Source of the DNA: an uncultured Candidatus Saccharibacteria bacterium
GTDB lineage: Bacteria > Patescibacteriota > Minisyncoccia > Phycocordibacterales > UBA918
Length of the DNA: 64,000 nt
Direction: 5' to 3'
Assembly (NCBI GenBank): GCA_964626635.1
Contig: CAZVFY010000002.1
Span: 72,415-136,414 of the forward strand
Below the pieces are notes generated by a model, which was not told where the DNA came from, did not search any database, and worked only from the letters and a program-made list of their open reading frames with translations. Both the position numbers and the translations under genes were made by a program. This document shows, piece after piece, positions 15,796 through 57,643 of the stretch (positions are counted from its first letter, which is position 1; every line of letters begins with the position of its first letter).

Positions 15796-17745
15796 ATGGC
15801 AGTTATCCCAATGCAAAAACTGGCGTATTACGTACCGAAGTCTCAGACTGATGATTTTTTGCGTGTCGTCCAAAAGTACGCTGCGTTCGAGATCGACCAG
15901 TCAGCCGCACCAGCTGATCTGGTAGCGAGTCAATTGCCAGATATGCAACACGGCGAGTTGGCGGCCCGGCTTGAACAGGCACTGGCCTTCGCTAGTGGCT
16001 ACACCGAAGCACCCAGCGCGTACCATACATTCCGATACGGGTCCGGAGTGTCATTGTCCGAACTGCAAATCGCTAGCTACCTGCATGAGGTAGACGATTT
16101 GCAGTCTGCCCTCGGCAGTGTCGAGACTTTGCGGTACGAACTGAACACTGTTGATCAGCAAATCACCGCCCTCGAAGAGAAGCGTGCCAGCCTCGAACCA
16201 TTTGCCGATCTCGGTGCGCCACTACAGTCGCTACGCACCAGTCGGACGCAGTCATTTGTGGTGCAGCGCAACGGCGTATTGGTAGAAGACATCGTCGCCG
16301 CGCTCGCTCGTGATGGTGTGGTCGCCCACGCAACTGAACTGGACAGTCGGGCGCTCGTCACTATTTACATGCAAATGCTTGAGACAGATGCCGCTGTCCG
16401 ATTGTTAGAGGCGACCACAGTCGATGTCTACGACACCCCTGCCGTTACCGGTGTCGCAAGCGAAGCCTTACAAGAGGTCGCCGATGCGCTCGTCGGACTC
16501 GCTGCCACTCGAGATGGTATCGTCGTACGCGTGCGCGCCGCCGTCGCCGAGCATCACATATTGCTCGCGACGTACGCCGAGCTATTTTCGTGGGTGCGCG
16601 CCCGGTCTGATGCGGCACAATTGGGCGCTGCCACGGCCACTGCCCACGTCTACACCGGTTGGTTGCAAGCTCCATTGCGGGAGACTGTCGAATCAGAGCT
16701 GTCTGACGCTGGCGTCGCATTCGCCAAGAGCGATGTGCCGCTCGCCGCAAATGAAGAACCTCCGGTAGAAATCAAAAATAATCGACTCATCCAACCGTTC
16801 GAGGCGGTCACGCGTCTTTACGGCATGCCCGGGTACAAAGACCTAGACCCGACGCTATTCCTGGCGGGCTTCTTCTTTTTGTTCTTTGGTCTTTCGCTGA
16901 CTGACGTTGGCTACGGCCTGAGCCTCGTGGCAGTCAGTGCGATCGTGTTGCTGTTTGGAAAAGTGAACGACACCATCCGATCATTCATGAAATTGCTGCT
17001 GTTCATCGGGTCGGCCACGGTATTAGTCGGGATGTTGTTCGGCGGGTACTTTGGGATTGATATCGGTCTCTTGCCAGCGCCACTCCAAGCTCTGCAGGTG
17101 TTTGACCCGATCGGCAATCCGCTGCCGGTGTTCTACCTGGCGCTCGGGCTCGGTGTGTTCCAAGTAATGGTTGGGCTGCTCTTGCGGATTTATTCGGATG
17201 CACGCAACGGGCAGTTCCTGGATGGATTGTGGGAGCAAGGACCGTGGCTGTTCTTGTTCGGGGTAGGAATCACGTACGTGTTGTCTATCGTTGAATGGGT
17301 CGCGGTGTCTCCAGAACTGTTGACTCGTCTCACGTATGCTGGCCTGGCTCTGCTGGTCGTAGGGGCACTGCGCAAGAGCACAGGCGTCCTCAGTGCCTTG
17401 ATGAATGTGTTCGGTAGTCTCTACAATTCGGTTGGGTTCCTGTCGGACATCTTGTCGTACTCGCGCTTACTGGCGCTCGGACTCGCGACCACGGCGCTGG
17501 CGTTTGCGGTCAATCTGATTGCTGGTATCGTGTACGAAGCTGTCCCTTATGTCGGCGTAGTTTTTGCCATCCTAATCCTCATCATTGGACATACATTTAC
17601 GCTGGCAGTGAACACGCTCGGGGCGTTCATCCATAGTGCCCGGTTGCAGTTTGTCGAATTTTTTGGCAAATTTGTGGTCGGTACTGGGCGCGCTTTCAAG
17701 CCGCTCGCTCGCTCGTATAACCACGTAACGGTTACCAAGGAGTGA
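15796..17745 (+). CDS. V/A-type ATPase subunit I (a subunit)
   Basis: 649 aa. Soluble N-terminal half and a C-terminal multi-TM domain, in operon position. Confidence 0.8.
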   Translation: MAVIPMQKLAYYVPKSQTDDFLRVVQKYAAFEIDQSAAPADLVASQLPDMQHGELAARLEQALAFASGYTEAPSAYHTFRYGSGVSLSELQIASYLHEVDDLQSALGSVETLRYELNTVDQQITALEEKRASLEPFADLGAPLQSLRTSRTQSFVVQRNGVLVEDIVAALARDGVVAHATELDSRALVTIYMQMLETDAAVRLLEATTVDVYDTPAVTGVASEALQEVADALVGLAATRDGIVVRVRAAVAEHHILLATYAELFSWVRARSDAAQLGAATATAHVYTGWLQAPLRETVESELSDAGVAFAKSDVPLAANEEPPVEIKNNRLIQPFEAVTRLYGMPGYKDLDPTLFLAGFFFLFFGLSLTDVGYGLSLVAVSAIVLLFGKVNDTIRSFMKLLLFIGSATVLVGMLFGGYFGIDIGLLPAPLQALQVFDPIGNPLPVFYLALGLGVFQVMVGLLLRIYSDARNGQFLDGLWEQGPWLFLFGVGITYVLSIVEWVAVSPELLTRLTYAGLALLVVGALRKSTGVLSALMNVFGSLYNSVGFLSDILSYSRLLALGLATTALAFAVNLIAGIVYEAVPYVGVVFAILILIIGHTFTLAVNTLGAFIHSARLQFVEFFGKFVVGTGRAFKPLARSYNHVTVTKE

Positions 17746-17763
17746 TCGTACGACATTATTTAA

Positions 17764-18267
<504 letters not shown>

Positions 18268-18271
18268 TTCT

Positions 18272-18829
18272 ATGTCTAATCCTGTCGCAGACAAAATCAT
18301 TGCTGACGCTGAATCCGAGGCTGTACGTATGCAAGCTGAGGCAGACGCTACGATTGCTGTAATCGAGGCCGAGACAATGGCGCGGACAAAGTCATTAGAA
18401 TCCGAAGCAACTGCGGCCAGGCAAAAGGCGGCTACTGCGCGGCAAAAAGTCCTGACTGCCAAGGCCGAGCAAGCTGCCAATCTCTCGCGCCAAGGCGCCA
18501 AGCGCGCAGCAATCGAATCAGTCTTGCAAGCCGTACATAGCGAACTAGAGAACGAACCGGCTAACGCGTACATCTCGAGGTACAGCGAACTATTGCAACG
18601 CAGCGATATCAAGGCCGCTGACGTGACCAGTGTACTCGCTCCGGCAAATCGCGTTGACGAAACCAAAGCGATCCTGGCTGCAGCTGACATTGAATCTGCC
18701 GCCGAGACCGGTGATTTTACGGCCGGACTGATCGTCGTCACCACGCATGGTCGATACGACCTCACGGCCGCTCGACTGCTGCGCGATTGTAAACCAGAGA
18801 TCGAGGTCGCACTACAAAAGATTCTGTAA
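18272..18829 (+). CDS. V/A-type ATPase subunit E
   Basis: Internal Met of ORF 18203 chosen (MSNPVADKIIADAESEAVRMQAEADA...), so the gene begins right after the K stop. Ala/Glu-rich coiled coil typical of subunit E. Confidence 0.65.
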   Translation: MSNPVADKIIADAESEAVRMQAEADATIAVIEAETMARTKSLESEATAARQKAATARQKVLTAKAEQAANLSRQGAKRAAIESVLQAVHSELENEPANAYISRYSELLQRSDIKAADVTSVLAPANRVDETKAILAAADIESAAETGDFTAGLIVVTTHGRYDLTAARLLRDCKPEIEVALQKIL

Positions 18830-18837
18830 ACAATTCT

Positions 18838-19695
18838 ATGACTACCCGTTACATCTACAGCAACAGTTACATTCGCGCCCTGGAGGGGATGTTGCTAACG
18901 CGTGCAGATGTAGACCGGTTAGTCTCGATTGAGAACGAAGCAGACTACACGCGGGCACTCAATGACACCTTTCTGGCGCCGCACCTACGCGACGATGACG
19001 TGGACGCAGCGTTGATCGCATACGTGCAGTCTGGCCGTGCTTTATTACGAAGGATCGCTCCCACACCAGCGATCGCGGAGTTGTTGTGGTTGCAAGACGA
19101 CATGCGCGACCTGCGCCTAGCGGCCAAAGAGATCGCGCTCGGTGAGGACCCAAGTGTCGAGGTAGAAGAAGTGTTACTCGCGCATCCACGCTGGACGCCA
19201 GCGTACACCGAAGCCATCTCGCTCCTCCAAAATAGCCAGGTCAAGCAAGCCGAGCAAACCCTTGATCTGCTCTACGAAGCGACCATCGGGCGCCGTCTGA
19301 GCGAAGCTACTGGCTTCCCAGTGACTACCGCCTTGCTCGACGCCAAGCTTGCTGCACTCTGGTACAAACAAGCCCTCCGTTCGAATGATGAAGCACGCAT
19401 CGATGATACGCGTACTAGTCTGCGGGCGATCCCGTATTTTGTGGCAGCGGTAGAAGCATTCGACAATGGGGATGTCTACCCGCTCAGTGTCGCGCTGGAG
19501 CTGTACCCTTACCAGGCAGCCAAGCGTACCGTTACTGGCGCCTTTGGGTTCGGGGTGTTGGTGCAGTTCTATGCTCGCATCGTTACCTCGGCGACGGTCG
19601 TACGCACCCTCAAAGTCGCTGTCGCCGCCACTACACCAAACGAAGTAAAACGAGATCTAATCGCGCCGTACACGGCCCTCATGTATGAATTCTAA
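18838..19695 (+). CDS. V/A-type ATPase subunit C (d)
   Basis: 285 aa helical protein, in operon position. Confidence 0.7.
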   Translation: MTTRYIYSNSYIRALEGMLLTRADVDRLVSIENEADYTRALNDTFLAPHLRDDDVDAALIAYVQSGRALLRRIAPTPAIAELLWLQDDMRDLRLAAKEIALGEDPSVEVEEVLLAHPRWTPAYTEAISLLQNSQVKQAEQTLDLLYEATIGRRLSEATGFPVTTALLDAKLAALWYKQALRSNDEARIDDTRTSLRAIPYFVAAVEAFDNGDVYPLSVALELYPYQAAKRTVTGAFGFGVLVQFYARIVTSATVVRTLKVAVAATTPNEVKRDLIAPYTALMYEF

Positions 19696-20014
19696 CCACC
19701 ACATCGCTATCATTGGGCCGACCGATATGGTGGCAGGCTTTCGGACGCTCGGCATCGAGGCGATCAACGCGACGTCTGGCATTGAGGCGCTCGCGGCGCT
19801 ACGCAGGCTTCGTCAAAATCCTGATCGACAGTACGCCGTGGTGTGTCTGATCGAAGAACTGTTTACAAACATTGATCCAGTTGAATTCGAGAAGGCCACG
19901 ACGGGCGCACTCCCCGCAGTCGTGCTGTTGCCAGGCACCGGTGGCGCAAGCGGTGTCGCGCTCGCGCGCCTGAGGCGCTTAGCCGAACGAGCGGTTGGTT
20001 CAGCCATCATTTAA
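19685..20014 (+). CDS. V/A-type ATPase subunit F
   Basis: 109 aa. HIAIIGPTDMVAGFRTLGIEAIN. Confidence 0.75.
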   Translation: MNSNHHIAIIGPTDMVAGFRTLGIEAINATSGIEALAALRRLRQNPDRQYAVVCLIEELFTNIDPVEFEKATTGALPAVVLLPGTGGASGVALARLRRLAERAVGSAII

Positions 20015-20040
20015 TTACTTACTCATTTATTACACTTACT

Positions 20041-21852
20041 ATGTCTACCGATACCACTAAATCAACCAGTAAAACTACTTTTACACCCGGCACCATTGTC
20101 CGCGTGACCGGACCGCTTGTCCGAGCGAGCGGTATGCGCGACGCGCGGCTCTACGAACTGGTCGAAGTGTCCGACGAGCGGCTGATGGGCGAGATCATCG
20201 AACTATCTGATGATGTGGCGTCAATCCAGGTGTACGAAGACACCGCTGGGGTTGGTCCCGGAGACGTAGTGCATCGCACCGGACGGACGATGTCGGTAGC
20301 GCTCGCGCCGGGCTTGCTCACCTCAATCTATGACGGCGTACAGCGTCCGCTGCGCGACATCGAGGCGGCTGCCAACGGTCCGTACATCAAGCGCGGGATC
20401 GAAGCTGAACCAATCGACACAAAGAAAAAGTGGGCGTTCCAGGCTGTTGCGAAGAAGGGCGCAACGGTCATCGGCGGAGACGTCCTTGGTACGGTGCAAG
20501 AAACCTCAGTCATCGAACACAAAGTCATGGTGCCGCCGGACATCAGCGGGGAACTGCTCGACATCAAAACAGGTGACATGACCGTCACTGAGCCAATCGC
20601 CACTATTAAAACCGAGGACGGCGACATCACCGTACCGATGCTACAGTACTGGCCGATCCGCAACGCGCGACCAAAGACCGCCAAAATTTTTCCGACCGAA
20701 CCACTGAAAACCGGTGGCCGATCAATCGACACTTTCTTTCCAATCGCTAAGGGTGGCGCTGGGTGTATTCCTGGACCATTTGGTGCCGGCAAAACCGTGA
20801 CGCAGCAATCGATTGCCAAGTACTGTGACGCCGAGATCATCGTATACATCGGCTGCGGCGAGCGCGGCAACGAGATGACCGAGGTACTGTCCGAGTTCCC
20901 GCACCTCGTTGACCCGAACACCGGCGAGCCGCTGATGAAGCGCACCATTTTGATTGCGAACACCTCAAACATGCCAGTCGCCGCGCGTGAGGCGTCCGTG
21001 TACACCGGGATCACCATCGCCGAGTATTACCGCGATATGGGGTACAACGTCGCGCTGATGGCTGACAGTACCTCACGGTGGGCCGAGGCTATGCGTGAGA
21101 TCTCAGGACGATTAGAAGAAATGCCTGGTGAGGAAGGGTACCCAGCGTATCTATCATCAAGAACGGCCGAATTTTACGAACGAGCTGGGATGGTACAGAC
21201 ACTCGGTTCAAAAGAGCGTACTGGCTCACTGACAGTGATCGGCGCGGTGTCGCCTCCTGGTGGCGACCTCTCCGAGCCAGTGTCACAAGCAACCCTGCGG
21301 GTCACTAAAACCTTCTGGTCGCTTGATGCCGGCTTGGCGTACAAAAAACACTTTCCGAGTATCAACTGGCTAGTGTCGTACTCACTTTACGTAGAAAACT
21401 TCAAGGGGTACTGGGCAGAACACATCGCGCCGGACTTTGCTGAGATCCGCGCGATTGCGATGACACTCCTCGAGCAAGAATCATCACTCCTCGAGATCGT
21501 CCGTCTCGTCGGGATGGAATCTCTCTCGGCGTCAGACCGACTAGTACTTGAGGTGGCGCGGATGATCCGCGAAGACTACTTGTTCCAGGATGCCTTCTCG
21601 CCAGACGATGCGTACACGCCGCTTGATCGGCAGTACGGCATGCTGAAATCTATCATTGCCTTTTATACGCACGGTCAAGACGTCGTCACAGCCGAAGAAT
21701 TTGACTTTACCAAGTTCACCAGCATCCCGACCTTTAGCGAGGTCGCTACCCTCAAAGACAAACTTGACTGGAAAGCCGCTGACTTTGAAGCGTTCCAAGA
21801 TCGCGTCAAAACTGACATTATGAGCCTGCGCACCAACGCACCCACTAACTAA
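20041..21852 (+). CDS. atpA: V/A-type ATPase catalytic subunit A
   Basis: Walker A GPFGAGKTV. 603 aa, including the non-homologous insert typical of A subunits. Confidence 0.95.
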   Translation: MSTDTTKSTSKTTFTPGTIVRVTGPLVRASGMRDARLYELVEVSDERLMGEIIELSDDVASIQVYEDTAGVGPGDVVHRTGRTMSVALAPGLLTSIYDGVQRPLRDIEAAANGPYIKRGIEAEPIDTKKKWAFQAVAKKGATVIGGDVLGTVQETSVIEHKVMVPPDISGELLDIKTGDMTVTEPIATIKTEDGDITVPMLQYWPIRNARPKTAKIFPTEPLKTGGRSIDTFFPIAKGGAGCIPGPFGAGKTVTQQSIAKYCDAEIIVYIGCGERGNEMTEVLSEFPHLVDPNTGEPLMKRTILIANTSNMPVAAREASVYTGITIAEYYRDMGYNVALMADSTSRWAEAMREISGRLEEMPGEEGYPAYLSSRTAEFYERAGMVQTLGSKERTGSLTVIGAVSPPGGDLSEPVSQATLRVTKTFWSLDAGLAYKKHFPSINWLVSYSLYVENFKGYWAEHIAPDFAEIRAIAMTLLEQESSLLEIVRLVGMESLSASDRLVLEVARMIREDYLFQDAFSPDDAYTPLDRQYGMLKSIIAFYTHGQDVVTAEEFDFTKFTSIPTFSEVATLKDKLDWKAADFEAFQDRVKTDIMSLRTNAPTN

Positions 21853-23334
21853 TTGCATATGAAAGAATATACTTCAGTCAAAGAACTCGCCGGACCACTG
21901 ATGGTCGTTGATGGCGTGGAAGGAGCCAAATACGAAGAGCTCGTCGAGGTGCAGGTACCAGGCGAAAAGCGCGTGCGCTACGGTAAAGTGCTGGACACCA
22001 GCAAGGGACGCGCGGTGGTGCAGATGTTCGATGCCACGGCCGGCATGACCACCGCTGGAACGCGCGTGCGATTCCGGGGCGAGACCCTCAAGCTCGGTGT
22101 GTCAGAAGACATGCTCGGGCGAGTATTTACCGGGGCGGGCGAAGTGGCCGATGGTGGCCCGGCGATCGTGCCAGAGGCGCGACTTGATATCGCTGGTGAA
22201 CCGATCAACCCGTACTCACGAGAATTCCCCAACGATTTTATCCAGACCGGGATCGGTTCGATCGACGTAATGAACACGCTCGTGCGTGGGCAAAAGCTAC
22301 CGATTTTCTCGGGGGCTGGGTTGCCACACGCGCGGCTGGCGGCGCAGATCGCGCGGCAAGCAACTGTGAGTGACGGCGCGAACTTCGCGATCGTATTTGG
22401 GACGCTCGGGGTGTCATTTGAAGAGGCAGAATACTTCCGTCGCGAATTCGAAGAGGCGGGCGCGCTCGAGCGCAGTGTGCTGTTTATCAACACCGCAGCT
22501 GACCCAGTGGTCGAGCGTGTCTCGACGCCGCGCATGGCGCTAACGACCGCCGAGTACCTGGCGTTCGAAAAAGGTATGCACGTCCTCGTGATCTTGACTG
22601 ACCTCACCAACTACTGTGAAGCACTACGCGAGGTGTCGAGCGCGCGCAAAGAAGTCCCCGGGCGTCGCGGGTATCCTGGATACTTGTACACTGACCTGTC
22701 GACGATCTACGAACGCGCTGGGCGCGTCAAAGGCAAAGAGGGAACTATCACCCAGATCCCCATCCTGACTATGCCCGACGACGACAAAACCCACCCGGTC
22801 CCCGACCTCACTGGGTACATTACCGAAGGACAGTTCGTCGTATCACGCGAACTTTACCGCAAAGAGATATTCCCGCCAGTTGATGTGCAGGGGTCACTGT
22901 CGCGACTCTGGGCGGCTGGTGTTGGCGAGGGCAAGACCCGCGCTGATCATAAGAACCTCAAGGACCAGCTTTTTGCGTCGTACGCCGTTGGTACCGAAGT
23001 GCGCGAGCTAGCCGTGGTGCTGGGCGAGGCGTCACTAGACGACAACGATCGCGCGCACTTACGGTTTGCCGATGCCTTTGAGAAAGAGTTCGTCGGCCAA
23101 GGCGAATACGAGAACCGTAGTGTCGCTGAGTCACTCGATATTGGGTGGAAATTATTGCGGATGCTACCACGCAATACCCTCAAGCGTGTAAAAGCCGCCG
23201 AGATTGACCAGTACATGGGGGCCGAGGCACCCGAGGCAGATGCAGCAGCTGATCAGGTGTCAGAAGGTGAGGTGGCTGCAGGGGCGCCAGAGCCAAGTAT
23301 GATGGGGGATAACAAAAACCAACCAGTTGCGTAA
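21853..23334 (+). CDS. atpB: V/A-type ATPase subunit B
   Basis: 493 aa alpha/beta family member without a canonical P-loop, directly after A. Confidence 0.95.
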
Positions 23335-23342
23335 TACCTATC

Positions 23343-23975
23343 ATGGCAATCTTAAAAATCAGTCCAACGCGGGTCTCACTCCTCAAACTAAAAAAGGAGC
23401 TCAAGACCGCCAAGAAAGGCCATAAACTCCTCAAGGATAAACGCGACGGTCTCGTCAAGAAATTCATGAGCGTGATCTACGAAGCTAAGGCGACTCGTGA
23501 ATCAGTCGAGGAGCGCCTGGGGTCAGCATTCGCGAGTTACCAGCGCGCCAGTATGGTCGCCAGCCCCGGCGCGCTCGAGGTGGCGACTAAATTGCCTGGT
23601 GCGTCGCTCTCTCTCGGCGTCAGTGTCAAGCGTGTTATGTCAGTCCCGGTGCCGGAATTTACGGTCGACAAGACTGGGGAGGCGGCCGTGTACAGTCAGG
23701 CCGATACGCCAATCGAACTAGATACCGCCATCACAAAATTTGATGATGTGATCGTTGATATTCTGACACTCGCGGCACTCGAGAAAACCGCCGCGAACCT
23801 GGCCGAAGAGATAGAGAAGACGCGCCGCCGCGTATCCGCCCTCGAGAATATCCGCATTCCGAACCTGCAAGACACGATTAAATTCATCACCATGCAACTG
23901 GATGAGCGTAACCGGGACGCGGTGGTGTCGACGATGCGAGTGAAAGCAATGATTGTTGCCAAGGAAAACGCCTAA
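23343..23975 (+). CDS. V/A-type ATPase subunit D
   Basis: 210 aa coiled-coil central stalk protein, last gene of the operon. Confidence 0.85.
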   Translation: MAILKISPTRVSLLKLKKELKTAKKGHKLLKDKRDGLVKKFMSVIYEAKATRESVEERLGSAFASYQRASMVASPGALEVATKLPGASLSLGVSVKRVMSVPVPEFTVDKTGEAAVYSQADTPIELDTAITKFDDVIVDILTLAALEKTAANLAEEIEKTRRRVSALENIRIPNLQDTIKFITMQLDERNRDAVVSTMRVKAMIVAKENA

Positions 23976-43698: not shown

Positions 43699-45273
43699 AT
43701 GTCATTTGAAGGTGCTCCACCAATAGCCGAAACCGGGCTGCCAATCAGGCCAGCCAGTGCTAGGCAGAGTTTGGCACAGGAATACGGTGATATGCTTGCT
43801 AATGCCAACAATAGCAATCAATCAGAGCTCGCCGAGGTAGAGCTCGATGCAACTGCTGACGACGAAGATCAAGATTCTGATCCAGATCTGAGCGGATACG
43901 TACGCCCGCAATTGGACGCGCCAACCGAGGAGCCTAGCCCCGACACTACTGCCACGGACGCCGAGCTAGCTCATCAGTACACTGAATTAGGATACGAGGC
44001 GAACGTCTTGCCAGATGACCTTACTGCGGATACCGCTGTAGAAGTATCCGAGTCAATAGACTCATCTGAAAAATTGGGAGAAGAGGTCAAGTTGGACGAA
44101 AAGGGGTTAGATTACACCCAAGCTGCACTCGATGACTATCTCGCCAATGCAGTCACTGCTACTGAACAAAATATTTCCGCGTGGCAACAGGATCCAGAAA
44201 CTGCCTCAGCATATCTGCAGCAATCAGAAGAATTTGCGAACGCTGTACGCGCCGCTGACACCCTTACAGAACTGAAAGAAAGACTATCTGATGGCGGCAG
44301 CATTACTGACAAGGATGCCAAGCTGGTGCAATCACTGACTGACGCGATCGCAAAAGCTGAAATTACTATTCCGATGAGTACCCTTTCCGCAGAAACAGGA
44401 CCGTCAGATAGCACTCAAACCCAGCTACATATAGAACAAGTTGAAAGAACACAGTCCGACGAGGAGATGCTAGAACCAGAACCAGAAGACTCGCCACTAG
44501 TCGGGCGTCCACGTGGATCTCTTGCGCCTGTAGGGTTAGATCCTAAAGAGGGAGATCAAATTGGCATTACGGCCAATGGCCGTCAGATACAACGGACTAA
44601 TGAGTTAACAAATAACTGGCCTGCTGAGGCTGATGCAGATCGGTTGCAGCTGCAACGTCGACTGTATGGTCCAGAGGTAGCAAATGATATGGAGGCTTTA
44701 CGCAAAATGGCTGACGCGCGGCGAAATTCCACCGAAGTAAGAAGCTCTGTTTTTACGCCGAAATCTTTACGCGCAACAGCAGAAAGAGAAGAAGTACATC
44801 ATCATACAGAATTCGACCCAACCACTGCCGCTCCCGAGGCACTACAAGCCAACGATGCTGAATGGCCACAGGTCGCAGTTGATCAAATTATCCTTGATGT
44901 CGAATCAGTTGCCAGTCAGTCGCGCGGCGCCTGGTCGAAATTTGTCCACCGTTTAACAAAGGGTAACGGATTTGTTTATGGGTGTGGCAATCGACCATTC
45001 AATCAATTTGTCGCGTTGTGTGATCCTGCTAAAAATTCTATGACGCAGATAAAAGAAACTGTCCTCAAACCAGTTGATGTTGATTACAACACGTTTAACG
45101 CTTGGCGTGATCGGCTTGACGACATGATTGATATTCAGGATGAGTATGATATGCCCATATTGAACAAGGGGGGTACGCCCCCGGTGAGATCATTCAGCGA
45201 AGTGGCTGAGCTATATGCCAGACGTATGCTAACGCTGGAGCGCGGCTCTGCAATGGGTCATTATTTACAATGA
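43699..45273 (+). CDS. Acidic, largely disordered protein with a conserved-looking C-terminal globular region, hypothetical
   Basis: 524 aa, rich in D/E/A/T/Q. C-terminal segment ..GNGFVYGCGNRPFNQFVALCDP... No signal peptide or TM. Confidence 0.5.
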   Translation: MSFEGAPPIAETGLPIRPASARQSLAQEYGDMLANANNSNQSELAEVELDATADDEDQDSDPDLSGYVRPQLDAPTEEPSPDTTATDAELAHQYTELGYEANVLPDDLTADTAVEVSESIDSSEKLGEEVKLDEKGLDYTQAALDDYLANAVTATEQNISAWQQDPETASAYLQQSEEFANAVRAADTLTELKERLSDGGSITDKDAKLVQSLTDAIAKAEITIPMSTLSAETGPSDSTQTQLHIEQVERTQSDEEMLEPEPEDSPLVGRPRGSLAPVGLDPKEGDQIGITANGRQIQRTNELTNNWPAEADADRLQLQRRLYGPEVANDMEALRKMADARRNSTEVRSSVFTPKSLRATAEREEVHHHTEFDPTTAAPEALQANDAEWPQVAVDQIILDVESVASQSRGAWSKFVHRLTKGNGFVYGCGNRPFNQFVALCDPAKNSMTQIKETVLKPVDVDYNTFNAWRDRLDDMIDIQDEYDMPILNKGGTPPVRSFSEVAELYARRMLTLERGSAMGHYLQ

Positions 45274-45333: not shown

Positions 45334-47031
45334 ATGGCACGTTCTTTTTCTTTTGACACCCCAGAGGAGGTAATGCATGTGTTGGCATCACTGCGTGCGA
45401 GCCAGCTTTCAATGGCTGATCAGGGTCGCATGCGCGATCTGATACTTTCTTACACGAATGGCGGGAAAGATCCTTCGCTTAAGAATCAGATTCAAAGAGA
45501 ATTACAGGCGCTACACGTGGCACCAAGTGAAGTGGAGACCAGATTAGAAGTTGGTCAAGTGCATTCGTTCGGATCATCCCGATCGACGCCGACCTTTCGT
45601 CCGCCAGTACCGGAAACTCCGCCCACCGCTGAGCCAGTTTCCCCTCACCCGGTTACTGAGCCAATACCAGTTCAAGTTAAACCGTTAGCAGCGCCCGCAT
45701 CAGCACCACTAAACACACTGCAAACACCTCCCCAGCCAGCAACTGCACACCCGTCAGCACAAACCAACACACCCGGATCGGACCTAGACACCGAACCAGC
45801 TACATCAGCGGATGCAGTTACAGCGACTAATTCGACGGTTCCTGCAAATGATAGCGGTGAGACTCCGTTAGTTCACACGCCAGCTGCACCGACCGCAACT
45901 TTAGATCGTATTCGCGCTATTAAATCTGAGATTAATCAGCTAGTTGGTAACCCAGTGCATCTGGTTGAAACAAATAACGAGATTGGTCGTGAATACATGG
46001 CTGCCATGCTGAATGCAATGAAATCCATTAGTGCTGGCGGCACTGAAGAGGCAATGGAACGGCTGGAAACGGCGTTTGCAGCTGCCAAATCTACTATTGC
46101 CAAACAACCTGCAGAGACCCCGCAAGCCCCCCAAGCAGATGTTTTGCAGCCAACACCAACGCCACCAGAAGTCATTCAAAACCAGGCCGCCCCGCACCCT
46201 TCGTCCGTCGCCAACCCACCCCAGCCAGCACAAACAAATCAAACTCCATCAGTCCCTCGGGCTGAAACGCCGGCACAAGCAGTACCAATTGTAACTACAG
46301 CGCCAGTACCAACTGCTGCGAGACAGGTACAGCCGCGCCCTGAACCAGAAGTCGTGCCCGCCAGCAGTTCTGATGTTACCTCTGTTTCGGCCGCTCCGGG
46401 ACGACCAGACAGCTCGGCGCCAATAGTGCTGGATCAGACGGATACGGGTGATAGCGCGTCACGCTGGAAGGATGTGCCAATGCAATTCCAAACAAATACT
46501 ACTACGACACCACCTCAACCACCGACTTCAGAACCTGCTCGTTCTACGCCAGCAGTTCCAGCCAGCTCTAATTTAGGCGCTCAGCCACCAGTCCCACCAC
46601 CACCCGCATCGGCCACACCACCGAGTAAACTAAAACCGTTAGCTGAAGCTGGTGAACCTCTCCATACACCAACCGAGCTACCAACCGCTACAGAGATGGC
46701 GCAAAAGCACCCTGGTGACCCGCTTTATACCCAGGCGGTGACCGATGGTTTACAACAGTTGCTCCTTGATTGGCAATTGTTTAATAAAAGCGGATTATTT
46801 GGCACTGGGCCGAAAGGTCTAGAGCACCCACTTTTCCTTAAAACTAAAGACATGCTGATTCCTATCTTATTAGCTGGGCGCTTTGATGGTGCGAGTCAAG
46901 AGATCAAGCAAAGTGTCACCGATTACATGAATGGGTGGCGCTACGAGCAGGGAATTGTCTACGAACAAGGCGAGACGTTCGAACATTACTTACGCCGCGT
47001 GATCAAGCACATTCTTGATCTTCACGCTTAA
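45334..47031 (+). CDS. Pro/Thr/Ala/Gln-rich low-complexity protein with a C-terminal globular region, hypothetical
   Basis: 565 aa. Central PxP/TPP-rich region of about 400 aa. C-terminal ..LFGTGPKGLEHPLFLKTKDMLIPILLAGRFDG... No signal peptide. Confidence 0.5.
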   Translation: MARSFSFDTPEEVMHVLASLRASQLSMADQGRMRDLILSYTNGGKDPSLKNQIQRELQALHVAPSEVETRLEVGQVHSFGSSRSTPTFRPPVPETPPTAEPVSPHPVTEPIPVQVKPLAAPASAPLNTLQTPPQPATAHPSAQTNTPGSDLDTEPATSADAVTATNSTVPANDSGETPLVHTPAAPTATLDRIRAIKSEINQLVGNPVHLVETNNEIGREYMAAMLNAMKSISAGGTEEAMERLETAFAAAKSTIAKQPAETPQAPQADVLQPTPTPPEVIQNQAAPHPSSVANPPQPAQTNQTPSVPRAETPAQAVPIVTTAPVPTAARQVQPRPEPEVVPASSSDVTSVSAAPGRPDSSAPIVLDQTDTGDSASRWKDVPMQFQTNTTTTPPQPPTSEPARSTPAVPASSNLGAQPPVPPPPASATPPSKLKPLAEAGEPLHTPTELPTATEMAQKHPGDPLYTQAVTDGLQQLLLDWQLFNKSGLFGTGPKGLEHPLFLKTKDMLIPILLAGRFDGASQEIKQSVTDYMNGWRYEQGIVYEQGETFEHYLRRVIKHILDLHA

Positions 47032-55199: not shown

Positions 55200-56666
55200 A
55201 TGTCTGACGACCAGTCACAACCAGAATCTAGCGACGTCCACGCGGAGCGTACGCGTATCCTTGCTCAAGCAGTCGCAGCTGGACATGATCCGTACCCAGC
55301 TAGTACCGACCAAACGCACACCATCGCAGCATTTCTCGAACAGTTCGAGTCGCTCGGTGAATCGATTAGTGTAACCTTGGTCGGACGGGTAATGGCAACG
55401 CGCGAGCATGGCGCGATCGCCTTCTTTGACATATTTGATGGCACGGGTCGCACCCAGGCATTCCTCAGTGTTGAGGCGATGGGACAAGAAGCGTTTGACG
55501 CCTGCCTGTCGTACGTCAGTACAGCCGACTTTATCCAAGTTACTGGCACGCCGTTTTTGAACAAGCGTGGTAAACAAGTCGTACTTGTGACTGACTGGCG
55601 TCTCTTGACCAAAGCGACTGCCAATATGCCAACCGAACATTTCGGTATTAAAGACGAGGACGAACGATTGCGTAAGCGCTACCTAGATCTGCTCCTAAGT
55701 GATGAGCAGCGCGAGCTGTTCGTTCAGAAAGCCAAGTTCTGGGACGTCACGAGGACCTTTATGAAAGAACGTGGCTTCCTAGAGGTCGAGACGCCATATT
55801 TTGAAACCACTACCGGTGGGGCAGAGGCCAGGCCATTTATTACGCACCACAATGATTTTGGCATTGATGGGTACTTGCGGATCTCGGTCGGTGAGCTGTG
55901 GCAAAAACGCCTCATGGCCGCTGGGTTCCCCAAAACATTCGAGATCGGCAAAGTGTTCCGCAACGAAGGCACTAGTTCCGAACACCTCCAAGAGTTCACC
56001 AACATGGAATTTTACTGGGCGTACGCAGACTACCGTGATGGCATGACGCTGACACGCGATTTGTACATCACGATTGCTCAGGAAGTGTTCGGCACGACCC
56101 AGTTCGAAGTGCGTGGACACTCGTTTGATTTGGCGGATGAGTGGCGCGAGATTCACTATGTCAGCGAGGTGCTTGCGCAAACTGGTATTGATGTCACCAG
56201 CGCCAGCGAGGATGAGATGAAAACAAAATTGAACGAGCTCGGTGTGCAGTACGACGGTGATAATCGCGAGCGTTTGACGGACACACTGTGGAAATACTGC
56301 CGCAAGCATATTGCGGGGCCGGCGTTCCTCGTCAATCACCCGCTACTGGTCGCGCCACTCGCCAAAGCCAATGCTGATGGCCTGACCGCACAAATGTTTC
56401 AGCCGATCATCGCTGGTAGCGAAGTCGGTCGTGGCTACAGCGAGCTGAACGACCCTGATGAGCAACGGCGACGGTTTGAAGTGCAGCAACAGCTACTCGA
56501 TGCGGGGGACGACGAAGCGATGATGCCGGACTGGGAGTTCGTCGAGATGCTCGAACACGGCATGCCACCCACGTGCGGGTTTGGATTTGGCGAGCGATTG
56601 TTTGCATTTTTAGCAGGGAAGTCACTGCGCGAGACGCAGCTGTTTCCACTGGTGAAGCCAAAGTAG
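55200..56666 (+). CDS. lysS: Lysine--tRNA ligase (class II)
   Basis: OB-fold N-terminal domain. Class II motifs FEIGKVFRNEG and GFGFGERL. Confidence 0.9.
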   Translation: MSDDQSQPESSDVHAERTRILAQAVAAGHDPYPASTDQTHTIAAFLEQFESLGESISVTLVGRVMATREHGAIAFFDIFDGTGRTQAFLSVEAMGQEAFDACLSYVSTADFIQVTGTPFLNKRGKQVVLVTDWRLLTKATANMPTEHFGIKDEDERLRKRYLDLLLSDEQRELFVQKAKFWDVTRTFMKERGFLEVETPYFETTTGGAEARPFITHHNDFGIDGYLRISVGELWQKRLMAAGFPKTFEIGKVFRNEGTSSEHLQEFTNMEFYWAYADYRDGMTLTRDLYITIAQEVFGTTQFEVRGHSFDLADEWREIHYVSEVLAQTGIDVTSASEDEMKTKLNELGVQYDGDNRERLTDTLWKYCRKHIAGPAFLVNHPLLVAPLAKANADGLTAQMFQPIIAGSEVGRGYSELNDPDEQRRRFEVQQQLLDAGDDEAMMPDWEFVEMLEHGMPPTCGFGFGERLFAFLAGKSLRETQLFPLVKPK

Positions 56667-56694
56667 TTGACAAACAATTTAATTCGTGTATAGT
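56667..56694 (+). promoter_or_regulatory. Strong sigma70-like promoter TTGACA-16-TATAGT
   Basis: Perfect -35 TTGACA at 56667-56672 and TATAGT at 56689-56694 with a TG immediately 5'. Starts 1 nt after the lysS stop. Confidence 0.6.
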
Positions 56695-56732
56695 ATAGAC
56701 ATAAGTTCCTCTAGCGCCATAAGGAGATAACC

Positions 56733-56897
56733 ATGGCCAAGCTCCACAAGACCCCGCCGTCCAGCAACAACCGCGCGGCGCGCAAGCGTCGCGAGCGCGA
56801 GGTCAACGCCCGCCGCTACGGCTGCGACATCGACATCCGTCGCGGCGCCCCCGTCGCCGGAACCAGCATCAAGAACTCCAAGGCTCGCGATGGCTAA
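56733..56897 (+). CDS. Mini-gene encoding a 54-aa basic protein, hypothetical; codon usage foreign to this window
   Basis: RBS AAGGAG 6 nt from the ATG. MAKLHKTPPSSNNRAARKRREREVNARRYGCDIDIRRGAPVAGTSIKNSKARDG. Third-codon positions are about 90% G/C. Own promoter and terminator. The 154-aa ORF on the opposite strand looks spurious. Confidence 0.4.
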   Translation: MAKLHKTPPSSNNRAARKRREREVNARRYGCDIDIRRGAPVAGTSIKNSKARDG

Positions 56898-56915
56898 GTC
56901 CTTAAGTTCATCCAC

Positions 56916-56946
56916 CCGCCCCACATCCGACGATGGGGCGGTTTTT
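56916..56946 (+). terminator. Rho-independent terminator
   Basis: CCGCCCCA-catccgacga-TGGGGCGG followed by TTTTT. Confidence 0.65.
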
Positions 56947-56971
56947 CGTTTGTCCCCACACAAATGCAGCA

Positions 56972-57019
56972 AAGTGGGGCAAAGTGGTATATAGTGTAAA
57001 AGTGGTGGGAGATAGTGGT
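56972..57019 (+). promoter_or_regulatory. Array of five direct AAAGTGG-type repeats phased at 10-11 bp (MraZ-box-like operator)
   Basis: AAAGTGG (56971), AAAGTGG (56981), ATAGTGT (56991), AAAGTGG/TGGG (57000-57009) and ATAGTGG (57012-57018), read directly. They sit about 190 nt upstream of mraZ. Confidence 0.55.
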
Positions 57020-57130
57020 ATAGATTCTGGTGTTTGTGTCTAGAATCTATATTGAAATCTCGCACGGATGGATTCTGGTAGCCTCGGCTACACAGGCTGT
57101 CTTGCGATATTTCGGGACGATCAGAGGGGT

Positions 57131-57182
57131 CTTCCGGCGACAATGCAAACCAATCTCCACGAATTGTATTGTCGGCGGAAGG
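57131..57182 (+). other. Long imperfect hairpin in the mraZ 5' leader
   Basis: CTTCCGGCGACAAT ... ATTGTCGGCGGAAGG: 14/15 complementary with one G-G mismatch and a 23-nt loop. Confidence 0.4.
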
Positions 57183-57208
57183 CCGCTTGATCCACCAGTT
57201 TAGTTATT

Positions 57209-57643
57209 ATGTTGATCGGCGAGCACAAGCATACGTTGGATCCCAAGAAACGGCTGTCTTTGCCCAGCAAATGGCGCAAAGAACTTGGGAAAACGCTCGT
57301 CGTGACACGAGGGCTAGACAACTGTCTCTTTGTGTACACGCTACCCGAATGGCAAAAGATCACCGACAAGGTATCTGAACTGCCGCTTGGGTCAGCGGAT
57401 ACACGAAGTTTCAATCGCTTCTTTTTATCAGGCGCGGTTGAAGTTGAAGTCGATAGTGCCGGACGCATTCTCGTACCAGATTTCCTGAAGCAATTTGCAC
57501 AGCTCGATACCAAAGTTGTATTGGCGGGCGTGCATTCTCGCATCGAAATTTGGGACGAGGAAAAGTGGGAAGCCTACACTGCCAGCATGGAACGCGATGC
57601 GGATACGCTCGCCGAAAAGCTCAGTGAGATTGGCGTCTTATAA
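57209..57643 (+). CDS. mraZ: Transcriptional regulator MraZ
   Basis: MLIGEHKHTLDPKKRLSLPSKWRKELGKTLVVTRGLDNCLFVYTLPEW. Tandem MraZ/SpoVT-AbrB-type halves. Confidence 0.85.
   Translation: MLIGEHKHTLDPKKRLSLPSKWRKELGKTLVVTRGLDNCLFVYTLPEWQKITDKVSELPLGSADTRSFNRFFLSGAVEVEVDSAGRILVPDFLKQFAQLDTKVVLAGVHSRIEIWDEEKWEAYTASMERDADTLAEKLSEIGVL

Follow-up and report, generated by a model that had tools for sequence, protein, structure and literature searches.

Lineage-specific small ribosomal proteins are known in Actinobacteria and Borrelia, as described in three reports (PMC10081302, PMC10085706, PMC10618245). Proteins such as bS22, bL37 and bTHX are tiny, extremely basic and largely unstructured, and are encoded by stand-alone genes in one lineage. 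The same holds for the product of a 54-codon gene, here called the mini-gene, which lies between lysS and mraZ in the 64,000-nucleotide stretch of DNA under analysis (the window), part of contig CAZVFY010000002.1 of an uncultured Candidatus Saccharibacteria bacterium. Most members of the family to which this gene belongs adjoin a ribosomal protein gene, rplU. The mini-protein, however, showed no sequence similarity to these in a profile search of the PDB, its link with the ribosome is putative, and the extreme codon bias of the mini-gene was not seen in ribosomal protein genes that share its contigs. A gene-specific codon skew is described for queuosine-dependent NAU-rich genes, whose decoding can be tuned by tRNA modification (PMC10570037). 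The synonymous skew of the mini-gene could likewise make translation depend on how the tRNA pool stands; it differs in being C/G-ending and in extending across every amino acid, and the comparison serves only as a lead. ‘Alien’ transferred genes are a further point of comparison. As in such genes, the codon usage of the mini-gene is sharply unlike that of the genome, and the gene is a compact self-contained unit in a variable intergenic slot; it differs in that its inheritance looks vertical, no donor was found and the atypical composition persists over deep divergence.

The reading favoured here, to which we assign a probability of about 0.55, is that the mini-gene is a native, vertically inherited orphan gene with a maintained codon bias, encoding an abundant cationic nucleic-acid binder. 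Its expression unit has the following parts:

56667–56694, + strand: sigma-70-type promoter, with the −35 box TTGACA at 56667–56672, a spacer of 16 nucleotides (nt) and the −10 box TATAGT at 56689–56694
56695–56732, + strand: predicted 5′ leader, with the Shine–Dalgarno sequence AAGGAG at 56721–56726, followed by ATAACC (6 nt) and the ATG at 56733
56733–56897, + strand: coding sequence of the mini-protein, 54 codons and TAA, encoding 54 amino acids (aa), MAKLHKTPPSSNNRAARKRREREVNARRYGCDIDIRRGAPVAGTSIKNSKARDG; isoelectric point (pI) 11.5, net charge +10, G+C at third codon positions (GC3) 0.907
56769–56798, + strand: codons of the invariant motif NRAARKRRER, residues 13–22, placed by the family alignment, the codon table of invariant columns and the AlphaFold2 helices
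56916–56946, + strand: intrinsic terminator, with an 8-bp G+C-rich stem, a 10-nt loop and TTTTT at 56942–56946

An earlier account of the window made from its letters alone (the sequence-only reading) had described the promoter boxes and their 16-nt spacing, the AAGGAG 6 nt from the ATG, and a 54-codon open reading frame (ORF) closed by a GC hairpin (56916–56941) and five T residues, together a self-contained expression unit; every one of these elements was found in its place. The promoter agrees with the consensus at 11 of 12 positions, and its −35 box begins one base after the lysS stop codon. Two promoter-like sites were seen in 1.6 kb, compared with 0.8 expected from shuffles; both are explained by the mini-gene promoter, the second being the same TTGACA with a shifted −10 box. 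Transcription probably starts near 56701–56703. The terminator arms, CCGCCCCA (56916–56923) and TGGGGCGG (56934–56941), form a 100% complementary inverted repeat, which a consensus terminator scan passed over solely owing to the 10-nt loop. Similar units accompany the gene in its relatives. In L004, which carries the closest orthologue, the region from −35 to −10 is alike except for one spacer base, the leader is similar and the terminator hairpin is identical; L085 and L086 have a TTGACAAA...TATAGTA promoter, likewise with a 16-nt spacer; L090 and L091 have AAGGAG(G) 6 nt 5′ of the true ATG; and hairpin and T-run terminators comparable to that of the window stand 3′ of the gene in L085, L086, L088, L090 and L091. 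The promoter and leader of the mini-genes are A+T-rich and host-like, and the GC bias ends at the ORF/terminator boundaries. The mini-gene is a monocistronic, self-contained cassette with a near-consensus promoter, a strong Shine–Dalgarno sequence and an intrinsic terminator.

An attenuation ORF, or a leader or arrest peptide, would share its transcript with a regulated gene downstream; the mini-gene has its own terminator directly after the ORF, and the downstream gene varies among members (mraZ, msrA or a convergent rmuC). As a separate observation, the 5′ leaders of four members (window 56704–56712; L004, about 68–76; L090; L091) contain the motif GTTCC(T/C)C, 15–25 nt upstream of the Shine–Dalgarno sequence, and two other members have GTTCT between the Shine–Dalgarno sequence and the ATG. 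No conserved pairing partner was found for the leader motif.

The family was collected from 5.8 billion protein clusters and 1.84 billion representatives, covering about 15 billion predicted proteins. The identical protein occurs on several independent assemblies in the same context (L001–L003), and seven further distinct homologues bring the family to eight proteins of 53–59 aa. P0002, from L004, is 77% identical to the window mini-protein, and P0005, P0007 and P0008 are about 50% identical; P0009 has an N-terminus resembling that of the window's protein, yet its gene stands between rplU and rmuC. The public gene calls for P0010 and P0011 start within the promoter or leader (L090 592–828, 78 aa; L091 10001–10234, 77 aa); the true start is an internal ATG 6 nt past AAGGAG(G), giving proteins of 59 and 58 aa. 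In the alignment, the motif NRAAR[KQ]RRER, one Gly and one Arg-Gly pair are common to all eight members. All eight are encoded on low- or medium-GC contigs, and no homologue was found in any other organism type among the clusters and representatives. The sequence-only reading had proposed a blastp or tblastn comparison, especially with Actinobacteria; the only homologues among the predicted proteins were the seven other mini-genes on low- or medium-GC contigs.

Searches of other kinds gave no further members. A tblastn search found no homologue in 50,697 phage records or 72,556 plasmids; Pfam, NCBIfam, PHROGs and PADLOC had no match for the window protein or for all eight members; and peptide-pattern scans of genome, metagenome (two scans) and viral contig collections returned no relatives, the genome-contig patterns being specific to the window's subfamily and hence little informative on distant members. 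When the window LysS is compared with that of metagenome-assembled genomes, the best identities are 70–72%, to genomes bearing the labels Patescibacteria, Paceibacteria, Kaiserbacteria, Parcubacteria or Saccharibacteria; this places the source of the window in the Patescibacteria (CPR), probably within the Paceibacteria, and the contigs of the family as a whole resemble those of such ultra-small bacteria. A tblastn search downstream of lysS in 80 lysS loci of GTDB species representatives (LysS at most 72% identical) found no homologue of the mini-gene. A ‘YGCDID’ match in L082 was discarded as a chance one, since it falls within a longer ORF, a LysS fusion, and is not in its frame. A small protein of phage, plasmid or defence-system type was rejected, as PHROGs, PADLOC, viral contigs, and phage and plasmid records were all without a match. 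Literature searches on small proteins of these bacteria, on GC3 outliers and on highly expressed hypothetical proteins turned up nothing about the family. The mini-gene family is an orphan, uncharacterised one, with eight members so far.

The gene order around the mini-gene is conserved within two contexts. In the window the neighbours are greA, lysS, mraZ and rsmH; lysS precedes the mini-gene both here and in L004, and the next gene is mraZ in the window and msrA in L004. In L085–L091 the order is rplU (leftward), mini-gene (rightward), rmuC (leftward) and yqeY (rightward), so that the mini-gene divergently adjoins rplU, the gene of ribosomal protein L21, in six of the eight members. L085, L086 and L088 are mutually close, as are L090 and L091; the two groups are far apart, with RmuC proteins 52–66% identical. 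The identity of the mini-proteins tracks that of the flanking L21, RmuC and YqeY, and in the same genome pairs synonymous divergence (dS) is 0.50–0.84 for the mini-gene and 0.31–0.46 for the adjacent L21 gene. Because protein identity tracks that of the neighbours and dS is at least that of the L21 gene, the mini-gene has co-diverged with its hosts. No mobility genes were found near it. These comparisons indicate that the mini-gene is native and vertically inherited.

What is inserted at the lysS–mraZ intergenic site itself varies: the species representatives closest to the window have unrelated hypothetical genes there, of 145 aa (L005 5622–6059) and 116 aa (L006 5510–5860), in neither of which was a Pfam domain found. 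Given the window-like N-terminus of P0009 in the rplU–rmuC context, the position beside rplU may be the ancestral one, from which the promoter–ORF–terminator unit would have been transferred as a whole to the lysS slot in the lineage of the window.

The codon usage of the mini-gene stands out within the window. Its G+C content by codon position is 0.61, 0.57 and 0.907; the window as a whole has 52.9% G+C, and the 53 window ORFs of at least 150 aa have a mean GC3 of 0.58 (standard deviation 0.06, maximum 0.68). None of the 15,977 in-frame 54-codon segments of these 53 ORFs reaches 0.907, the maximum being 0.870. Given the amino acids and the codon usage of the window, 29.8 ± 3.5 G/C-ending codons would be expected; 48 of 53 are observed (z = 5.1). 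The sequence-only reading had estimated about 90% G or C at third positions and regarded this bias as foreign to the surrounding genes, and both statements agree with these figures. It had also named many native genes with the same GC3 as grounds for abandoning the idea; the 53 long ORFs, with their maximum of 0.68, include none.

Two observations on composition elsewhere in the window may be added here. The V-ATPase that the sequence-only reading listed, together with lysS and mraZ, among the neighbours is indeed present, as a V/A-type ATPase operon at 15796–23975; it encodes subunits I, C/AC39, A, B and D (Pfam) with a GC3 of 0.64–0.66, and a 54-codon segment of the A subunit (20865–21026) has a phase-GC of 0.87, the second highest in the window. 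GC3 is lowest, at 0.42 compared with the window mean of 0.58, in the adjacent ORFs 43699–45273 (524 aa) and 45334–47031 (565 aa), and no Pfam domain was found in either; on composition, they are better candidates than the mini-gene for foreign or fast-evolving lineage-specific genes.

The bias recurs in every member of the family. The GC3 values of the eight genes are 0.91, 0.98, 0.85, 0.83, 0.89, 0.94, 0.95 and 0.90, compared with 0.33–0.73 in flanking genes, and the excess of G/C-ending codons conditioned on amino acids reaches z = 6.8 in L091. In the pooled family, Lys is encoded by AAG in 45 of 47 cases and Asn by AAC in 26 of 27, and NAC accounts for 45 of 48 codons of Asn, Asp, His and Tyr. 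At invariant residues the third base is C in 63 codons, G in 17, T in 11 and A in 5; therefore, synonymous turnover occurs but is confined to G and C. Genome-average codon usage is found in the L21, L27 and L9 genes for ribosomal proteins on the same contigs. In two-fold NNY boxes the C-ending share is 0.39 in ribosomal protein genes, 0.41 in other L091 genes and 1.00 in the L091 mini-gene; in four-fold boxes the corresponding values are 0.30, 0.26 and 0.65. Generic translational selection is rejected as the cause of the high GC3, since the L21, L27 and L9 genes use genome-average codons. G/C-ending usage was kept during co-divergence with hosts whose GC3 is about 0.35–0.7, and is no donor relic. 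With neighbours conserved, divergence host-like and GC3 at 0.83–0.98 throughout, the bias is a maintained property of a native gene; selection or another gene-specific force maintains it.

Selection would act on the synonymous sites of the mini-gene alone. A possible target is the mRNA, which, being A/U-poor (about 10% U), may be stable and nuclease-resistant, withstanding A/U-directed RNases; another is decoding, which might proceed by Watson–Crick wobble pairs only, without wobble modification. Bacteria rarely show strong selection on synonymous sites confined to one gene, and it is rarer still in lineages with slow growth and small genomes, where not even the ribosomal protein genes have a codon preference. 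A gene whose GC3 stays above 0.83 in genomes with a GC3 of 0.35–0.7 offers a clean natural test case, for which mRNA stability, decoding chemistry or something unknown are the candidate forces.

The pattern of substitutions identifies the mini-gene as protein-coding and under purifying selection. Differences at the first, second and third codon positions number 5/2/15, 11/7/18 and 9/9/23 within the close trio L085, L086 and L088, and 10/10/19 between the window and L004. The ratio of nonsynonymous to synonymous divergence (dN/dS) is 0.12–0.34 among the three rplU-linked genes of this trio; when the window is compared with L004, it is 0.50. Eleven of the 12 invariant amino-acid columns use more than one codon; Ser11, for example, is encoded by AGC in the window but by TCG in L004. 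With seven homologues diverging in this manner, the view taken in the sequence-only reading, that this is a real coding sequence rather than a small RNA, stands. The opposite strand carries another long frame:

56679–57143, − strand: antisense ORF of 154 aa, overlapping the unit; a by-product, not a gene

This ORF is rejected as a real gene, the third sense positions, which vary, being its first codon positions. The antisense −1 frame is stop-free in all eight members because the codons TTA, CTA and TCA are absent.

The mini-proteins are strongly basic, with a pI of 11.5–12.0 and a net charge of +9 to +18 across the family; the sequence-only reading had rightly described a very basic peptide. 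Two AlphaFold2 runs, each with the sequence of one subfamily first, predicted a single helix over the invariant motif, at residues 14–29 and 17–30, with a predicted local distance difference test score of about 75 at the helix and 63–66 overall; the remainder was modelled without regular structure, disorder being predicted for the Pro/Gly/Lys-rich tails. The motif lies at the N-terminal end of this sole predicted helix, which has no hydrophobic face. Conserved residues on a single arginine-rich helix are reminiscent of arginine-rich-motif peptides and of the basic region of basic leucine zipper (bZIP) proteins, and the spacing N-x-x-A-A-R-x-x-R fits the pattern of the latter: compared with the bZIP signature N-x2-A-A-x2-[CS]-R, the sequence N-N-R-A-A-R-K-R-R has the same spacing, with R replacing C/S. 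The mini-protein differs from bZIP transcription factors in having no leucine zipper; the sequence after the motif is G/P/K-rich without heptad leucines, and the helix ends at residue 29. No Pfam bZIP match was found at E ≤ 10 for the window protein or for the eight members, and an hhalign comparison with lambda N was not significant, with a probability of 0.5%.

A nucleic-acid-binding or ribosomal-like peptide, one of the suggestions of the sequence-only reading, is plausible given the charge, the predicted helix and the motif resemblance. The protein would be made in quantity and may bind nucleic acid electrostatically through its single arginine-rich helix; the target could be rRNA or the ribosome, or DNA, a nucleoid role being equally possible. 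The divergent position next to rplU, found in six of the eight members, makes the ribosome a candidate. With this family, the poorly known cell biology of ultra-small bacteria gains a small basic protein that is conserved and probably abundant.

Several observations weigh against this reading. The two genomic contexts could in principle mean two separate acquisitions. A family of eight among about 15 billion proteins is small, which is odd for a core component of the ribosome or nucleoid. The case for nucleic-acid binding is built on the charge of the protein, its single predicted helix and a resemblance at the level of a motif, and hhalign aligned NNRAARKRRER with NTEAARRSRARK of GCN4 in the bZIP register at a probability of only 1%. 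The selection on GC3 is inferred from persistence, with which slow decay is also compatible. Support for a genome-wide preference for G/C-ending codons is weak: an Akashi-type test of the window lysS with 80 homologues gave a slight excess of such codons at conserved sites, with a Mantel–Haenszel odds ratio of 1.5–1.7 (z of 1.7–2.2). A crude count of polarised synonymous changes in the trio L085, L086 and L088, with small numbers, gave nine changes from G/C to A/T (S>W), three in the reverse direction (W>S) and six S>S for the mini-gene.

A more specific version of the favoured explanation, that the mini-protein is either a small ribosomal protein specific to its lineage or a ribosome-hibernation factor, comparable to bS22, bL37 and bTHX, is unlikely as it stands. 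It draws on the divergent position beside rplU, on a size, charge and mostly disordered single-helix prediction that suit small rRNA-bound proteins, on the strong expression signals and on the precedents in Actinobacteria and Borrelia cited above. Against it, a profile search of the PDB (177,635 sequences, E ≤ 10) returned only a chance match to a nanobody and no solved ribosomal chain; the detected distribution is very narrow, the gene lies away from rplU in the window lineage, and its codon usage is absent from the ribosomal protein genes that accompany it on the contigs.

It is rather improbable that the extreme GC3 is neutral, arising from GC-biased gene conversion at a recombination hot spot or from slow decay of an ancient GC-rich import. 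The S>W excess in the trio (9 compared with 3) is compatible with slow decay, and short cassettes moving between the lysS and rplU slots could recombine often. The same counts, however, when taken as rates per site, imply an equilibrium GC3 of about 0.65 for the mini-gene and about 0.27 for L21 (15 S>W and 9 W>S changes in the same trio), these numbers also being small; furthermore, the bias is confined to the ORF and terminator, next to an A+T-rich promoter and leader, and appears in every lineage whatever the GC3 of the host.

To the same low degree we credit an elaboration of the favoured reading in which the mini-gene is written in a private codon dialect. The C/G-ending codons could let the mini-protein be translated when wobble-base modifications of tRNA, for example queuosine or xm5s2U, are missing, or its mRNA survive A/U-directed endoribonucleases, and the product would be a dormancy-type binder of the ribosome or nucleoid. 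Conditions of this kind are plausible when these host-dependent bacteria starve or lie dormant away from their hosts.

The main idea of the sequence-only reading, recent horizontal acquisition from a high-GC Actinobacteria-like donor whose codon usage has not yet decayed, is largely refuted and appears very improbable. The codon set of the mini-gene (GCC, CGC, AAG, AAC, ACC, GGC and ATC) resembles the usage of high-GC genomes, and a self-contained cassette in a slot which in relatives is occupied by other genes, followed by different genes in the window and L004, would suit an import. Atypical composition and codon usage, one mark of alien genes, are present. A host-incongruent phylogeny with homologues in a donor group is absent from the family, and so is composition decaying towards that of the host, GC3 being 0.83–0.98 in all eight members with RmuC identity down to 52%. 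Conserved gene order, divergence that tracks host genes, a dS at least that of the adjacent L21 gene, a host-like A+T-rich promoter conserved along with the gene, the absence of nearby mobility genes and the lack of homologues outside the eight members, phage and plasmid records included, all contradict an import. An ‘alien’ codon signature alone is insufficient to call horizontal transfer.

Very improbable, too, is the explanation that the gene works through an RNA, structured or dual-function, with the ORF incidental or secondary: a G+C-rich segment with its own promoter and terminator in a moderate-GC genome is like many small RNA genes, and folding of the complete transcript is slightly more stable than that of shuffles (z = −2.1), but this excess stems from the terminator, the substitutions obey codon structure, and the strong Shine–Dalgarno sequence is conserved at the right spacing. 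Compared with dinucleotide shuffles, the coding region shows no excess stability (z = −0.55 in the window, +0.97 in L085); an Rfam E-value scan of 56000–57600 and tRNA/tmRNA scans gave no match within the unit; and RNAalifold on the eight members gave a weak consensus of 15 weak pairs with an unfavourable covariation term of +0.77. With no Rfam match, excess folding or covariation, the structured RNA mimicking coding periodicity that the sequence-only reading had kept as an alternative finds no support.

Some features of neighbouring DNA are recorded here. In L082 (3992–6103), from a single-cell genome of Patescibacteria, the lysS ORF has 703 aa, of which about 215 form a C-terminal extension that is absent from the window LysS (488 aa). 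The mraZ leader contains, at 57125–57187, a 24-nt inverted repeat, 83% complementary, with a 15-nt loop; it is not present in the aligned regions of L005 and L006 and is therefore a lineage-specific insertion. A weak, sub-threshold Rfam match to P35 (27.5 bits, E = 0.12) arises from this repeat, at 57128–57199, outside the mini-gene unit. Upstream of mraZ, the window contains at 56974–57022 a run of GTGG-containing direct repeats, with AAAGTGGT occurring twice and GTGGGGCAAAGTGGTATA and GTGGGAGATAGTGGTATA 31 nt apart. This region is almost identical in L005 and L006, despite LysS proteins only about 70% identical, and is probably the MraZ operator and mraZ promoter.

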